A stretch of DNA of 63,152 nucleotides, the filler included, from Diploschistes diacapsis (taxonomy: Eukaryota), in the NCBI GenBank assembly GCA_023645945.1. It is 7 parts of 7 records of this genome, joined end to end, with 100 filler letters (N's around TTAATTAATTAA, not from the genome) between each part and the next. Parts side by side here need not be neighbours in the genome. Positions count along the whole stretch, not along the records: positions 27,789 to 30,250 come from JALAIB010002198.1; 6 more parts are not named here. One strand, written 5' to 3'. This document shows positions 25,227 to 63,152 of the stretch, in pieces. Position 1 is the first letter of the stretch, and every line of letters begins with the position of its first letter. Made by a program: the position numbers and the translations under genes. The notes under the pieces are model-generated. The model was not told the origin of the DNA. It searched no databases and saw nothing but the letters and a program-made list of their open reading frames with translations.

Positions 25227-26126
25227 GTCATACCGAACGAAATCAAACGAGTTAATTATCGATTCAAATTATTAAAAGACGTAAAGATTTATTTAATATT
25301 TTATTTCCGATATTTCGAATTTATATATCTAGATATACCGTTATAAGAAACCTTCTATTTCGAATTAAATAACGAGAACGAATACGAAGTCGAAAAGATT
25401 CTGGATAATAACCTTAAAAGATTTTTTATTAAATAAAAAGGATATCCGTCGGATTAAAATACATAAAAACCCTTATTAAACCTAAATAATTACCGAAATA
25501 AAATTAAAGAATATCGGAGACTCATTAAAACGAACGGAATGTCTTAATTATCGTCCGCATCTTTAAACACTTCAATCGTAAGCCAAAAATCGAATAATTT
25601 ATTTAAAGATCTATTAACGCGATAATATCTCCCGCTATAAGATCCTCGCCGTTATCCTTTAATTATTAAATAAGATAACGAGTTTTTATGATCGTTTCCT
25701 TTTACGCCAATTCTTAAATCTTACGCTTTTTATTAATTCATGATTATATCTTAAAAAATTCTTTAAATTTTTAATTTCTATCCCGTTTTAAAAACAATAA
25801 TTTCGTAACCTATTAAGTACGAACCTTATTTAACGGGAACTACGAGCGAAAGAAACAAGATCTTTTTACACGGATATATTTAGAATACTTATTTAAAATC
25901 AACGGTAATATTAAAAGGAATCATAAAAAAAATAAACAAGAATTATAGATTATTTTAGAAAAATATCGAAAAAATTCAATTTCGTCGATAAAACGCAAAC
26001 GTTTCTTTCTTCTATTACGATATATGATCTTACGTTAACGACGAATACAGGAAACTATTATAAAAATATTAAATAAGGACACGATTTCGTTTATATAATT
26101 AAACCTTTTAACGAATTATCGGATCG
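25227..26126 (+). mobile_element. RIP-degraded Gypsy chromovirus (family A, copy 1): integrase C-terminus, chromodomain and antisense ORF relic
   Basis: Reads ENEYEVEKILD...KRFFIK*KGYP (chromodomain); near-identical to 28280-28520; AT-rich with many TAA/TAG. Confidence 0.9.
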
Positions 26127-27560
26127 TGAAACGCCAGCGCAGGTATGGGATACTACACTACCGGGGGCTAAACCTGATCCGAAGGGATTACGTGTAGCTA
26201 AACATCTGTAAATAAAAGGTCTCGATTCGAAAAACTAAAAAAGAAATTATCTAAATAAGAAGATAACAGGAATAAATAGTGTGTAAGTGCCAGCCCTACA
26301 GGGTTCGGGTCCTACTCGTTTACACAGCCACCTCCTAACATCCTTGGCACGGTTGGTACCCGTCATGTGATTCTGGTGGCTTGGTACGCCTGGGATGATC
26401 TGTTTCACTACCCTTTTTTCTAGATGTTTGTATTTCTTACAAACGCGATGATAGCTTTTTTAATCAATATCCATCTCGATCTTTATTTCTTTCGTTAATT
26501 TGTTTAAAAAGATACTTATTATTCTTTCGTAATAGATATTATCGTCTTCTTAAACCTCTTTCAGCGGTATCCTTACTTAAACCTACTTTTAGATTCTATA
26601 GGAAAACGTGATCGTCGTGATAGTCGATATTGTTTTATTTTGAAAACTCGCTCCCGTTTGTAATCCTTGCTAACGTATACTGTCTATCCCTAGGCGTTGT
26701 TAATTATAAAGATTTCACCTTTTCGGGATTTAATTAATAAAATTTCCATAAAATATCGAGAATATTTTCGAAATTAATGGCGGGATCTTAGCTATCGTCG
26801 GGTAATTATTCTATTTAACGTACTTTATATTAAACGTTTATTCCTCGTCCGGGACTTCTTTTGGCGTCGAGGATCTCTTCGAGCTTTTATTCTTTTCCAG
26901 CCTCTATTTCTATCGGGAGTGATCTAAGATGCGTTTATTTTTTTAAAAGTTTTTGCGGGTCTTTTATAAACAGGAACGCGTGAAACGTTTTAAACTATTT
27001 TATCGACGCTAATAAATCCAGTTCGAAGTCGATTTCGCTTATCTTTCGTAAAACGTTATAAAGGCCGTTCTATTTATTATTTAACTTTTTACAGGCCCGG
27101 GTGATTCTGATATTGCGTATATTTAATTAAACCGAGTCGCCGAAATTGATCTTTTTAACGAAGCGACGGTGTTCGTCCGCGTATCGCTTTTATCGTTATT
27201 AAACTAATATTATATATCTTTTAACGAAATCTTAAATATTTTATATGATTTCGGCGATAATATTAACATCTCGGTTACCTATTCTTTCCCGAGCAGTAAC
27301 TCCCTGCTCCGCTATTTTATCGATATCGAAAGACATCCGGGGTTCGTATCCCCTAATAGCGAAAAATAACGAACATCTCGTCGATTCATTTTCAGCCGCG
27401 TTAATAACAAATTCTGTTATGGGTAACAATCTTCCCCAATCCTTCTGCGAGTAGTAGACGAAGGTTCGTAAATATCGTTCTATTTTTTTATTAATATTTT
27501 TAATCTATTCGTCCGTTTGTAAATAAAAGGCCGTCGATAGCTTAAAACGGATATATAATA
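26127..27560 (-). mobile_element. Second Gypsy chromovirus (family B) inserted in opposite orientation: 3' LTR 26127-26407, PPT, chromodomain, integrase C-terminus
   Basis: LTR bounded by TGAAAC...GTTTCA, with a purine tract (GAAAAAAGGGTAG on the minus strand) next to it. Minus strand reads LEEILDAKR..*YKVR*..PDDS*DPAINFEN (chromodomain) and LPITEFVIN..FFAIRGYEPR (integrase). Confidence 0.85.
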
Positions 27561-27788
27561 TCTCGTATAGATACTATTATAATAATAATATACCGCTTAT
27601 TAAAAGAAAGGTATTATATCTTTTATAAAATAAGAAATAAGGGTATAAAAGCTAAAGTAATGGTCTGGTTATTTTATAAATATATATGNNNNNNNNNNNN
27701 NNNNNNNNNNNNNNNNNNNNNNNNNNNNNNNNTTAATTAATTAANNNNNNNNNNNNNNNNNNNNNNNNNNNNNNNNNNNNNNNNNNNN

Positions 27789-29684
27789 TATCACATATAG
27801 ATAGATCGAGTTGTGAGAATTCATAGATAACTTATCTAAAAAAAATCATCAGCGATAAGGACAAGCTCTTTACCTCGGGATATTAGAAAATCATGATGGA
27901 AGCGTTCGGCACGAAACTGAAACATTTAAACGCTTATTATTTATAAATAGATGGTTAAATAAAAAGAATAAATTAGATTCTCGAATAATATTTACGGCAT
28001 TACGTCAATTAGAATATGGACAATTAGGTTAAACTATTATCGAACGCCGAATACTATCTTAACAACAGATACAGAGAAGTTAAGAAGATTCAGAATATAT
28101 AATCACTTAATAATAAGATATTAGAAAATGCTAAGAGATTAGCGATCTTAAGGAAGAATCTTTAGTTAAAAAAGGGAGATAAGGTTTATTTATATACGGA
28201 TAATTTCAGGACACGTAAATCCTTTAAGAAATTAGATCACGTCAAAATCGGACCCTTCTTTATCAATAAACAACCCGTCGTGCTAAACGAAATTAAACGA
28301 ATTATCTACCGATTCAAGTTACTAAAGGACGCGAAAATTTATTCAATGTTTTACTTATAATACCTCGAACCTATATATCTAAATATATCGTTATAAGAAA
28401 CCTTTTATTTCGAATTAGATAACGAAAACGAATACGAAATCAAGAAGATTCTGGATAATAACCCTAAAAGGTTTCTTATCAAATGGAAAGAGTACCCGCC
28501 GGAATAGAACACGTAAGAATCTATCAAGAATTTATAAAAGATAAAAAAAAGAAAGTTAGGCTTAAAAGGCCACTAACGAAAGAAAAACATATATACGATA
28601 TTTTTTATATTATATTTATATTTTCGAGGACTTCGATAATAAATTAAGGGTCGAATAATTTTATTTAAAGGTTCGTTAATGCGAAAGTATTTTTTATTGA
28701 TAAATTTTCGCCGTCGTCTTTTAATTATTAAATAAAATAACGAGTCTTCGTGATCGTTTCCTTCTACGTTAATTCTTGAACCTTACGTTTTCTATCAATT
28801 CTTATTTATATCTTAAAAAGTTCTTTAAATTTCTAATCGCGATCCCGTTTTAAAGATAATAATTTCGTAGTTTATTAATTACGGATCCTGTCCAACGAAA
28901 ACTACGAGCGAAAGAAATAAGGTCTTTTTAAACGGATATATTCAAAACATTTATTAGAATCAACGTCAATACCAGAAGGAATTATGAAGTAAAAATGATC
29001 GGAAACTAAATAAGAATCATAGATTATTTTAAGAAAATATCGAAGGGATTCGATTTTATTGGCGAGACGGAAACGTTTTTTTTTTTTATTGCGATATATG
29101 ATTTTGCGTTAACGACGAGTTGAAGGATCTATTGTCGAGAAACGGGAAGAAAATTAATTTCGTTTATATAATTAGATCTTTCGGTTTATTGTCGGGCCGA
29201 CAATTCCGAAGGAGGGGGATAATATTACGATCTAGGTTACTGGCCTATCACGTTCTAATTACTTACTAAAAAACACTCACTGACGTTCGGGTCACGTGAG
29301 TTGTTGGAACGAGCGGCGCCGTTTTATGCGCTCGGTAGGAGCAATGGGCGGCGCTCTTTCTATTTTATGAAAGCTATTATCGGCGCTTCCTTCGCTTTGG
29401 TAAAGCATAGGAAGCTGGCGTTGGTGTTTTATAGGAAACTTAGATATATAATCTTTTTTTTAGACATACCTTTATTCGGTATATTTATTTTTATAAACAT
29501 CTTAAATTATTATTCGGGATTAATTTATATTCGTTACTTCTATCACCTTAGAGCCTTCTTTCTAGAGATAGTCTAAAACCTATGATTGTTCTATCTTCTT
29601 TTCCTGCCATACTCCTCTTCTAACAGAGACCAAACCTATCTTGATCCTACTCGTGTATACCTTGTATAGATAGAGATCATAACA
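27789..29684 (+). mobile_element. RIP-degraded Gypsy family A copy 2: partial integrase, chromodomain, antisense ORF, PPT (29208-29219) and 3' LTR (29223-29684)
   Basis: KKLDHVKIGPFFI (GPF motif), ENEYEIKKILD..FLIKWKEYP, PPT gaaggaggggga, LTR T(G>A)TTACGATC...GAGATCATAACA. Confidence 0.92.
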
Positions 29685-32912: not shown

Positions 32913-33124
32913 TCTTAATATATTTATTTTTATAAATAGTTTTAATTAAAGTTCGGGATTAATTTATATTCGTTACCTTTATTATCTTAAAACTATCTTT
33001 TAGAAATTAGTATAGAGCTATAATAGATCTACTACTTCTTCTTATTTACACTCTTCTTCAACCGAGACCAAACTTACCTTGATCTAGACCTCGTGTCTAC
33101 GTTGTAGAGATAGAGATCATAACA
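32913..33124 (+). mobile_element. 3' part of a family A LTR
   Basis: Matches ~29475-29684 and ends GAGATCATAACA. Confidence 0.85.
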
Positions 33125-58642: not shown

Positions 58643-58979
58643 TGTTATGATCTCTATCTATACAAGGTATACACGAGTAGGATCAAGGTGGGTTTGGTCT
58701 CTGTTAGAAGAGGAGTGTGGCAGGAGAAGAAGATAAAGAAGTTATAGGTCTTAAACTCCCTCTAAAAAGAAGGTTTTAAAATGATAGAAATAACGAATAT
58801 AAATTAATCCCGAATAATAATTAAAGATATTTATAAAAATAAACACGTTTTTTTTTACGAAGATAGAGTCGTGTTTATATATAATTAACTCGCTCGCCGT
58901 TTATCGCAAGTTTAACGAACGGTGCCCTCAAGATTCGCCGCTTATAAGAATAAGCGCGATCATCGAGCGGTGGCGAAAG
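58643..58979 (-). mobile_element. Family A LTR interrupted by a second family A element
   Basis: Starts TGTTATGATCTC, follows 61179-61514, then breaks at another TGTTATGATCTC. Confidence 0.88.
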
Positions 58980-60592
58980 TGTTATGATCTCTATCTATAC
59001 AAGGTATACACGAGTAGGATCAAGGTGGGTTTGGTTTCTGTTAGAAGAGGAGTGTGGTAGGAGAAGAAGATAGATCAGTTATAGGTCTTGGACTGTTTCT
59101 AGAAAGAAGGTTCTTTAATGATAGAAGTAACGAATATAAATTAATCCCGAATAATAACTAAGGATATTTATAAAAGTAAACACGTTTTAGATTTATAAAG
59201 GCCATAACGACGTTCTTATATAATTAACAGCTCTTTTAATAAAATAAATAAATAAATGAATAAAATTACCGTTCTTTTTTTCTATTTACGATCGGGTAGA
59301 ATAATCTTCCAGACCTTTTATTCATTACGTGACCCGCGTCACCCTAATTGGACTATATATAAAGAATGGTTGGGAAGTGCCCGACTAATTATTGCGTGTT
59401 AAGTACTACCGATTAATACTTTGGATCGTAATATTATTTCTTTTTTTTAGCTTTGTCGGCCCGATAAGCACCGAAAAATTAATATAAGTATTAAATAAAA
59501 GAGAATCTTAAGTCGTAAGACAGCGATGTTTTTTTTATCTTCGATATAAAAGAAACGTTTAGGTTTTATTATTCGTTTTCGGGGTTTCCTGGACATATTA
59601 TTTTATAATTATTGTTTATTCTTTTACGATTATATTAGGATGTTTTCGATCTCGGTAAAGTATGCTCGTTATATTGAGTCCGATAGGAAGGATTGCGTTT
59701 TTATTATATGAAAAGTAATTGAACGGACCATCTTTTCGAAAAGAAACGAGATCGAGAAAGATGAGAAGCTTGTTGACGAGGATAATGAATAAAAAAAAGA
59801 ATTAAAAAAATAACTTCGTGAGGTTAAAGATTGTCGTTTTTAGCGTAAACGTCGTATTCGTTGTAATCGAAAGGTTCTTAAACTAACAGAAGATCGCGCG
59901 GACGCGTAAGCGAAATATTTAACAAAGGAGTTGGATTTAGAATCGTCCGAGGCGTACGCGAACGCTTAAGAAGGCGTACTTTCGGAGTTCGATTTAGAAT
60001 TATTAAAACTAGCCGTAATGTCGCCGGTTTAGTTAAATTAATTTTTAAAGGATAAGGTTCTTATCCTTCTAGATTAAATAAGTCTGCGATATTCCTTTAT
60101 CTTATTTCTATAATTGCTCAAATTTTCTAAAGATTCCCACGTGTTTTATTCTGATGGGTATCCTTTTTACTTAACGAGGAATCTTTTGGGGCTATTATCT
60201 AGAATTCTTTTAACTTTATATTCTTTTTCGTTATTTGGTTCGAAATAGAAGGTTTCTTATAACGGTATGTTTAGATATGCTGATTCGAGGTATCGGGAAT
60301 GAAATATTGGGTAAACTTTCGCGTTTTTTGGTAATTTAAGTCGATAATTAACTCGTTTGATTTCGTTCGGTATAACGGATTGTTTATCGATAAAAAAAAG
60401 TCCGATCTTGACGTAATCGAATTTTTTAAAAGGTTTACGTATTTTGAGGTTATCCGTGTATAAATAAATCTTATCTTTTTTTTTTAATTGAGGATTCTTT
60501 TTTAAGATTCTTATTCTTTTAATATCGTTTAATGATTCGTTGTTTAGCGATTGTGTATTTTAAACTTTCTTAATTTTTTTGTGTTTGTTATT
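58980..60592 (-). mobile_element. Gypsy family A copy 3: 3' LTR 58980-59433, PPT, antisense ORF 59526-60077, chromodomain and integrase end
   Basis: Reverse complement of 60070-60592 matches ~28065-28540; LTR ends conserved. Confidence 0.92.
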
Positions 60593-61178: not shown

Positions 61179-63152
61179 TGTTATGATCTCTATCTATACA
61201 AGGTATACACGAGTAGGATCAAGGTGGGTTTAGTCTCTATTAGAAGAGGAGTGTGGTAGAAAAAGAAGATAGAGTAATTATAAATCTTGGACTGTTTCTA
61301 GAAAGAAGGTTCTAAAATGATAGAAGTAACGAATATTATTAATCCCGAATAATAACTTAAGATATTTATAAAAATGAATACGCCTTCTTCCACGAAAATA
61401 AAGTCGTGCTTATATATAATTAACTCGCTCGTCGTTCATCGTAAATTTAACGAACGATACCCTCGAGGCTCGCCGTTCACGAAAATAAACGCGATTATCG
61501 AGCGATAACGAAAGCTTACTCGCCGCTTACGAGAATAAACGCGAGCAGTAAACGTATCACGTGACCCTTAATCCCGTAATTGATTTATATATAAAACTAA
61601 AACATATTAAATCTAATATTTAGATCGTAATATTATTCCTTTTTTTTAATATTATCGGCCCGATAATTCGTCGAAAGGTCTAACATAAGTATTAAATAAA
61701 AGAAAATTTTAAGTCGTAAGATAACGATGTTTTTTTTAACTTCTCGTAACCGATCCGTCGAATAAATCCAACTTTCTCGTTCTATCGCTCGTCATAAAAT
61801 CCTTATTATTTCTTCTTATAAATATTATTTTTTTAACGATAAGTCCTGTTTCGTTATATCATTTAATTCTAAAATCCTAAAATATTCGGAATATATACGC
61901 CGTAATCGTTCTTACGTAAAAATATTATAGATTCGCCTAAAACGGACATAAGATGTATTAAAACGGTTTATATAAAAAAATATTGATCGGTTTCTTAAAC
62001 TTACTCGTCGTATCGAGCGGAATAAACTTTTTTTATAAAAAATATAAACCCGTACCGATATAAAGATAGAATGTTTAACGGAATCATTGATTACGGAAGG
62101 TGAAAACCTAGGCCGTATTATGATTAATATATCGATATTTAAGGCGGAGATTCTCGACGGAAATCCATCTTTTTTCGCTGATGACCCCGAGGAATTACCT
62201 TCGTTGAGTAGGGGCGTCGTTACTTAGCTTTCTTGATTAGTTCGTTAGTCTTAAATTGACCAATTTATTGCCCAAGGAGTTTTCTTATATTTCTCTAGCT
62301 TGCCCTTATAGTTAATTAGGTTCGTTGAGGGTTCTCACGTGTCCTAATCTTCCGGGTATCCTTTCTACCTTACTCGGAACTTTCCATCCTTATGGTTTAT
62401 AATCCTTTCGATTTCGTATTCGTTTTCGTTATCTGATTTAAAATAAAAGGTTGTTTACAATGGGATGTCTTAATATACTGACTTAAGGTGTTTAATATAA
62501 AACATTGGGTGAACTTTCGCGTCCTTTAGTAATTTAAGTCGATAGCTGACTTTTTCGGTTTCGTCGGATATTAAAGGTTACTTATCGACAAGAAAGGGTC
62601 CGACTTTGACGTGATCTAGCTTCTTAAAGGGTCTACGTGTCCTAAGATTGTCCGTATATAGGTAAACCTTATCCCCCTTTTTCAGCTAAAGATTCTTCCT
62701 TAAAACCTTAATTTTATTAATATCATTCAATGCTTCGTTATTAAATAATATCGTATTCTAAATCTTCCTAATTTCTCTATATTTATTATTAAGATAATAT
62801 TCGGCGTTAAATAGTAATTTTATTTAGTTATTTATGTTCTAGTTAACGTAATACCGTAAATATTATTCTAAAGTTTAGTTCATTCTTTCTGTTTAACCAT
62901 CTGTTTATAGGTGGTAGACGTTTGAATGTTTCAGCTTCGTGTCGAACGCCTCTATTATGGTTTTCTAATATCCTAAAGTAAAGAACTTGTTTCTATTATT
63001 AATGATCTTTTCTGGATATTTATGAATAATAAACGTTTAAATACTTTAATTTCGTGTCGAACGCCTTTATTATAATTTTCTAATATTTTAACGTAAAAAG
63101 CTTATTTTTATTATTAATGATTTCGTTTAAATGTCCATGAATTCTTATAATT
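61179..63152 (-). mobile_element. Gypsy family A copy 4: 3' LTR 61179-61632, PPT, antisense ORF 61727-62227, chromodomain, integrase part
   Basis: Minus strand reads KKLDHVKVGPFLV and DNENEYEIERI..*KGYP; LTR ends conserved. Confidence 0.92.

Follow-up and report, generated by a model that had tools for sequence, protein, structure and literature searches.

Small dimerising regulators can be encoded in antisense near a 3' LTR, as is the case for HBZ, a bZIP protein of the human retrovirus HTLV-1. An antisense promoter has been placed in the HTLV 3' LTR (PMC7264820, available sections), and antisense genes between pol and the 3' LTR are known, from the available sections of PMC7264820, PMC4227169, PMC5987419 and bioRxiv 2021.04.13.439636, in plants and in the Botrytis gypsy element Boty, whose antisense gene brtn is credited there to Zhao 2011 (Virology 417:248). 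The maize Grande gene23 is described as nuclear and as having its own promoter, and the role of antisense genes in this position is called an open question (PMC7264820, same sections). Among DNA transposons, the VANC proteins of the Arabidopsis VANDAL elements co-evolve with their targets (PMC5735166, available sections).

Here we describe a comparable gene in a window of 63,152 nt, filler included (the whole stretch of DNA analysed), from Diploschistes diacapsis (GCA_023645945.1), where it occupies positions 28605-29132 within part JALAIB010002198.1 (27,789-30,250). We read it, with a probability of about 95%, as the RIP-type dead copy of a true third gene of an ascomycete clade of Ty3/gypsy chromoviruses, running in antisense from inside the polypurine tract towards the end of pol. 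By position and orientation it is an antisense additional ORF between pol and the 3' LTR (the aORF-3R class). BRTN of Boty is alike in belonging to a fungal chromodomain gypsy element, in lying in antisense between pol and the 3' LTR and in its unknown function, and differs in that no zinc cluster figures in its available descriptions, the two being set side by side by description only. No relative named BRTN occurs among the best 120 of 285 and two supplements of PMC8365987 do not contain 'brtn'; the present family may be the BRTN family. Grande gene23 shares the position, the orientation and a conservation comparable to that of other element genes, whereas the plant elements, in the available sections of PMC7264820, have SMC or Transposase_28 domains or no similarity, and no six-Cys cluster. 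HBZ likewise derives from an antisense gene near a 3' LTR, but as a bZIP protein of a human retrovirus it is not expected to be homologous. Our literature search, beyond whose reach most subscription papers lay, turned up no account of an antisense protein with a zinc cluster from gypsy elements of fungi.

The window contains host genes (Rax2, GH47, PhoD and a subtilase by Pfam, with no drug-resistance family among the 21 host frames scanned) and two AT-rich islands at ~25.2-31 kb and 58.1-63.1 kb, both CpG-rich and TpA-rich, the first of which holds the 28605-29132 copy. Since pol remnants lie on the plus strand on one side of this copy and a polypurine tract and LTR on the other (Table 1), it is the 3' internal region of a Ty3/gypsy chromovirus relic, on the strand opposite pol. 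The relic carries SH3_Tf2-1 and Chromo, its RT lying beyond an assembly gap, and the order of pol domains in intact relatives is RVT_1, RT_RNaseH, Integrase_H2C2, Chromo (Pfam). The LTR that follows the polypurine tract is a repeat common to the sister loci. A family profile matches all four window copies (E 6.8e-14 for 28605-29132) and further subfamilies elsewhere in the genome; the window itself holds three, namely A (at 28.6 kb, with the sister), B (59.5 kb) and C (61.7 kb).

Table 1. Features of the antisense-gene locus and of its relatives in the window
Feature	Position	Strand	Remarks
Antisense accessory gene, dead	28605..29132	-	175 codons + stop; start mutated; 11 internal stops in first 170 codons
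Six-Cys Zn2Cys6-like motif (x2-x6-x13-x2-x6)	28917..29021	-	Cys survives at position 4 only in this copy
Long helix (predicted coiled coil), ending at the seventh conserved Cys position, codon 28739	28737..28916	-	From models of intact relatives
pol 3' end: SH3_Tf2-1 and chromodomain remnants	28175..28576	+	Pfam PF24626 E 2.5e-4, PF00385 E 2.6e-6
Leader of antisense gene	29133..29187	-	TATA-like word ~36 nt before start, partly mutation-made in this copy
Short hairpin adjoining polypurine tract	29188..29204	.	Place and loop kept, stem variable
Polypurine tract	29208..29222	+	By sequence and position; same place in intact elements
3' LTR, 462 nt	29223..29684	+	First ~260 nt (U3 by position) subfamily-specific; last 200 nt common to other subfamilies
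Sister copy (L007), also subfamily A, 76% identical	25544..26058	-	Frameshifting indels
Subfamily B of antisense gene, divergent, dead, tail-to-tail with pol	59526..59975	+	Profile E 5.7e-4; ends approximate
Subfamily C of antisense gene, divergent, dead, tail-to-tail with pol	61727..62152	+	Profile E 3.9e-14; 3' end approximate

The leader of the sister copy is cut by a nested LTR (26127-26340) of a second chromovirus family without an antisense gene, seen at 26127-27680 on the minus strand, and copies L010 and L011 are interrupted by what seems to be this LTR again. The 200-nt LTR end recurs five times in the window (29484-29684, 32919-33124, 58643-58843, 58980-59180 and 61179-61380) with differing U3 parts, and the occurrence near 33 kb, which lies among host genes, may be a solo LTR.

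An earlier note on this DNA had read the minus strand as a six-cysteine motif in which most cysteines appear as tyrosines, and our codon comparison bears this reading out: the six positions fall on codons 29021, 29012, 28991, 28949, 28940 and 28919 with the x2-x6-x13-x2-x6 spacing, and the reciprocal codons are as claimed, position 4 being TGT in 28605-29132 and TAT in the sister, and position 6 TAT and TGT, respectively. Among the four window copies, positions 2, 3, 4 and 6 are indeed each Cys at least once; the sister has TGT at position 2 and, having lost 13 nt and gained 1 nt between positions 2 and 4, is uninformative on position 3. Searching the D. diacapsis genome returned at least 13 matches, including 28605-29132 and the sister, and once the 12 other copies are added all six positions are Cys in at least one real copy: position 1 in L006; 2 in L006, L007 and L008; 3 in L004, L008 and L009; 4 in the 28605-29132 copy, L004 and L006; 5 in L004; and 6 in L006, L007 and L008. 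The gene ends first given also stand, with ATG at the 29132 codon in six of the 12 other copies and the stop at codon 176 in all five long copies, and LKDDGENL here and LITEGENL in the 61727 variant both lie on a family motif behind a seventh conserved Cys. The [C/Y] spacing occurs twice in 9,848 nt of AT-rich repeat DNA of the window versus a mean of 0.09 in 200 shuffles, 1% of which reach 2.

Comparison of 28605-29132 with the six frame-intact sisters (of 12 found) revealed that 491 of 502 differences are transitions, and that ten of the 11 stops in its first 170 codons are open in some sister. Nine codons in this stretch are Tyr or Cys, and seven of these are Cys in at least one of the 10 sisters compared and also in P0002, the intact protein described below, while the remaining two are never Cys (His, Arg or Tyr in the sisters, Phe in P0002), which shows that the Tyr/Cys test discriminates. 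The proposal that the tyrosines are mutated cysteines is therefore upheld by the transitions and by the presence of all six positions and of the seventh Cys in sisters and P0002, and the possibility raised with it, that Tyr might be ancestral at the remaining positions, is contradicted by Cys at all six. As for the consensus over copies that the same note had advised, comparison does recover the cysteines but a plain majority fails, Tyr being the majority at all six positions because mutation runs one way. Since differences between copies are almost exclusively C:G to T:A transitions and TpA is gained (TpA/ApT is ~1.0-1.1 in the repeat versus 0.6-0.9 in most genic bins), the 28605-29132 copy is RIP-mutated. 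Every antisense-gene copy seen in the D. diacapsis genome is broken or truncated. In the repeat islands transitions are frequent beside T as well as beside A and CpG is spared (CpG ratio >2), a pattern broader than classical CpA-biased RIP. The subfamily B motif (59604-59696) has x5 and x7 replacing x6 and x6, and the first loop looks shorter also in the subfamily loci L019-L024.

The broken copy itself matched no Pfam family, and a word-index search with broken copies found no relative among 1833 candidates; relatives were then found by a full HMMER search, in which a profile of seven broken copies, with X at stops, was run against 1.84 billion representative proteins. It returned 39 proteins, of which P0004 was dropped as a false, low-complexity repeat match; P0021 and P0032 (57 and 68 aa) were left out of the reading. 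The best match, P0002, aligns with 28605-29132 without a gap (53 of 164 residues identical, 32%, E 4e-34) and has Cys at all six motif positions and at the seventh. A second round, covering protein lengths of 61-461 aa, extended the family to at least 285 relatives. Those that are named are annotated in UniRef as hypothetical or Zn(2)-C6 domain proteins and come from what we take to be Dothideomycetes and lichen-forming ascomycetes, with many accessions for one relative sequence in Pyrenophora tritici-repentis. P0009 and P0012 are annotated as Quercus suber and probably represent fungal DNA in that assembly. In IMG/VR no relative of the antisense protein was present among 174 candidates, nor did 11 pol-related loci there give a match.

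In all 23 metagenome loci (13 of which also served to build the profile used for this positional test) the antisense gene lies tail-to-tail with the C-terminus of pol, just downstream on the opposite strand. An independent Pfam check found retroelement pol domains in the frame tested at 18 of 19 loci; at the remaining one that frame belonged to a flanking HET gene. At 18 intact loci the antisense gene consists of one uninterrupted exon of 165-179 aa, and the start codon of intact loci lies 43-104 nt from the LTR edge. These 18 of the 23 loci were used for dN/dS (leaving out L045, which is split across contig ends, and the degraded L046-L049): values were 0.05 for L028/L029 and 0.12 for L031/L032 at dS of 0.34-0.40, compared with mostly 0.18-0.29 for pol pairs, and pN was below pS in 152 of 153 pairs. 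Judged by these intact relatives, the antisense gene is a real, selected accessory gene. The Gag frames of intact elements are long, at 640-748 codons (L027:2622-4856, L028:465-2681, L038:252-2171 and L043:1157-3400), and two of these four contain a weak WCCH motif match far behind the zinc knuckle.

The spacing C-x2-C-x6-C-x8..15-C-x2-C-x6-C is found in 125 of 130 intact relatives, with a middle spacer of 13 in subfamily A of the window, and fits the PF00172 pattern (C-x2-C-x6-C-x5..16-C-x2-C-x6..9-C). The intact protein, of 160-185 aa, comprises a basic N-terminal helix, the six-Cys cluster, a coiled coil of 52-59 aa and an acidic aromatic tail; the N-terminus is net basic in 104 of 120 relatives. 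For an intact relative (pLDDT 84), whose domain was also modelled alone, AlphaFold predicts an N-terminal helix followed by two short helices in the cluster and a single helix of ~60 residues. In a structural search 7 of 48,161 chains reached Z 2, six of them titled Gal4, Pho7, Ppr1, AlcR, Leu3 and Hap1 and one titled DNA-binding protein, with a best Z of 2.6 (Gal4 and Pho7, rmsd 1.9 over 36 residues); another structural search gave up to Z 3.1, Foldseek a probability of 0.92 for Pho7 at E 0.26 (top matches at E 0.26-0.46), and profile-profile alignment to Zn2Cys6 with hhalign a probability of 44%. The structural searches with these models point only to Zn2Cys6 proteins, but weakly. A PDB sequence search yielded nothing under E 0.03 (Leu3 at 0.56), Pfam Zn_clus matches 35 of 130 relatives at E<=0.1 (best 2.7e-4) with the unrelated Cys-rich Bunya_G1 likewise matching 35 of 130, and none of 36 relatives reaches the Pfam gathering score of 21 bits for PF00172 (best 18.7).

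Comparison with 24 Zn2Cys6 motifs from D. diacapsis host genes revealed where the family departs from the canonical type. The Cys2-Cys3 loop holds a mean of 0.58 K/R in relatives versus 4.12 in host motifs, its position 4 is Gly (48%) or Asn (34%) versus Lys (88%), and the proline that 21 host motifs invariably have before Cys4 is absent, the last two places being Leu (93%) and Lys (79%). Conserved instead are a helix before Cys1 that bears Arg (96%) and Glu (93%), the Glu after Cys4 (95%), a basic Cys5-Cys6 loop and a Trp motif behind Cys6 (Trp 99%). A dimer model scored 0.55 versus 0.01 for the best control, with runs agreeing in at least 93% of contacts at pLDDT of at least 75, by a mark that 21 of 30 solved pairs pass but none of 23 single chains (17 of 29 and 0 of 30 for eukaryotes); the job contained zinc, left the alignment unused, and the pass may reflect likeness to solved coiled coils. 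The modelled contacts (95-120, 105-105, 91-123) are antiparallel, unlike Gal4-type dimers. The protein thus resembles Gal4, Ppr1, Leu3, Put3, Hap1, Pho7 and AlcR (PF00172) in its six-Cys spacing, predicted fold, coiled coil behind the cluster and acidic tail, but is much shorter at 160-185 aa, is without the basic Cys2-Cys3 loop and the proline before Cys4, has an extra conserved N-terminal helix and an antiparallel dimer model, and falls below the Pfam cut-off. Going by the models it plausibly works like a small Gal4-type regulator; because the basic recognition loop and the proline are missing and the dimer is modelled antiparallel, we do not file it with the Zn2Cys6 factors: it is Zn2Cys6-like, not a canonical Zn2Cys6 factor.

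To compare the gene and its flanks across subfamilies we counted transversions, which the mutation process does not make, with U3 and R-U5 assigned by position only. Between window subfamilies the share of transversions is 0.5-2.5% for the final 200 nt of the LTR and 2.9-10.8% for pol, but rises to 20-22% for the antisense gene and 17-20% for U3, near the 23-25% of shuffled sequence; within subfamily A they stay below 1% in gene and U3 alike. Subfamilies B and C have the leader between gene and U3 in common (2.2%), whereas the sequences flanking it on either side differ. For the intact pair L027/L043, transversions are 1.6% in pol, 20.8% in the gene and 26.6% on the U3 side (shuffle level), with 92% identity in pol and 62% in the gene, while L028/L029 are alike throughout. 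Such near-random difference in both gene and U3 suggests a regulator-plus-target cassette; linkage and recombination alone would also move the adjacent gene and U3 together. When gene and pol trees were compared (without the near-duplicates L029 and L040), a gene tree constrained to unite L027 and L043 could not be rejected (p-AU 0.118); the gene tree is mostly unresolved, and a Mantel test gave rho 0.28 (p 0.049, n 12).

We propose that the protein would be made from a promoter at the 3' LTR or leader, dimerise via the coiled coil and then enter the nucleus, where the dimer would act on the U3 of its own element and keep that element transcribed, as an activator or an anti-silencing factor; the acidic tail would recruit host machinery. 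Any contact with DNA would be made by the N-terminal helix, which is conserved, and by the cluster's second half, not by a Gal4-type recognition loop, and as the gene adjoins U3 both would be inherited and exchanged as one regulator-plus-target cassette. We hold the action of a nuclear dimer on its own U3, be it activating or anti-silencing, to be a tentative proposal a little short of an even bet. Doubtful is its bolder form, in which the clade would carry a miniature zinc-cluster regulator with non-Gal4 recognition, antiparallel and two-headed, whose gene and cognate U3 are exchanged as lock and key so that only its own LTRs are activated or shielded in a VANC-like manner. VANC, going by the available text on it, is alike by functional analogy only, in that the protein encoded by an element and the sequences it targets diverge jointly from one related element to another; it belongs to plant DNA transposons, and its function has been shown whereas that of the antisense protein is one we infer. 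Element pairs with like pol and unlike gene and U3 make a test of cognate versus non-cognate combinations simple.

The antiparallel dimer model would suit an adaptor that is no transcription factor: a rod, capped by zinc clusters at both ends, might link two partners (such as the two LTR ends, or a host chromatin protein and the integration complex) or, through direct contact, block a protein of host silencing. The basic recognition loop is lost while other surface positions (the Glu after Cys4 and the Trp) remain strongly conserved, and the coil is fixed at 52 or 59 residues in 120 of 120 relatives, both of which fit such a rod. The adaptor leaves unexplained, however, that gene and U3 diverge jointly in elements whose pol has changed little (2.9% transversions between A and B), and the elements already have a chromodomain for targeting; we consider it questionable. 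A self-limiting regulator, by which a nuclear dimer, or an antisense RNA overlapping the 3' end of pol, damps the element's own transcription or copy number as in some retroviruses, seems rather unlikely to us. The antisense frame does overlap the end of the pol frame in 14 of the 16 intact loci measured, the joint variation of gene and U3 suits a repressor as well as an activator, and antisense-RNA and retroviral accessory-gene models have been discussed for such ORFs (PMC7264820, available sections). Strong selection at the protein level nevertheless rules out an RNA-only role, and 119 of 120 relatives carry a net negative charge in the tail behind the seventh Cys. Acidic aromatic tails are more typical of activation domains.

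Alternatively, the gene would be a piece of a host Zn2Cys6 transcription-factor gene that the element captured and carries along as a passenger, or as cargo acting on host genes. This draws on its kinship of fold with host Zn2Cys6 proteins and on the UniRef naming of some relatives as Zn(2)-C6 domain proteins, but it is improbable given that the antisense position is fixed in all 23 loci, that selection on the gene matches that on pol in strength and that no closer host relative is among the matches at the 61-461 aa searched. An artefact, be it a Tyr pattern arisen by chance in mutated, AT-rich DNA or a frame that shadows a gene on the other strand, can practically be dismissed, for although Tyr is common in such DNA and prevails among the copies at all six positions, intact proteins match without gaps and with Cys at the same seven positions, the pattern is rare in shuffles, and selection acts in the antisense frame. 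On its own the dead 28605-29132 copy adds little; the accessory gene it stems from has a predicted fold that is recognisable and hundreds of intact natural members. Its relatives are entered in fungal genomes as host 'Zn(2)-C6' or hypothetical proteins, which may inflate transcription-factor counts.

Next to the leader, the hairpin adjoining the polypurine tract has one wobble pair per strand and three other mismatches. In intact elements it recurs equally far from the LTR, its loop conserved and its stem entirely different, and in 10 of 18 intact elements, relatives that are not independent of each other, it folds better than shuffles at p<0.05, compared with 3 of 16 and 0 of 17 controls. It is also present in elements without the antisense gene, namely L077 (folded) and L076 (by eye, the computed fold being different). 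The hairpin is a general cis element beside the polypurine tract, for which we found no description in the literature. The CGG-N1-CCG palindrome at 29188-29204 was rejected as a binding site of the protein, its stems being variable, CGG not being kept and the hairpin occurring in gene-less elements too. On the sense strand of the element the loop contains GG, and stems are compensatory across distant elements (the leaders of L027-L045, L076 and L077). Of 15 intact leaders, 7 have a TATA-like word 37-48 nt ahead of the start (shuffles average 0.6 and reach at most 4), which hints that the leader might contain a promoter. A CCCCGC-like word, which we take to resemble the CreA/Mig1 box, stands ~30 nt ahead of the start codon in 7 of the 15 (shuffles average 1.3 and reach at most 6).
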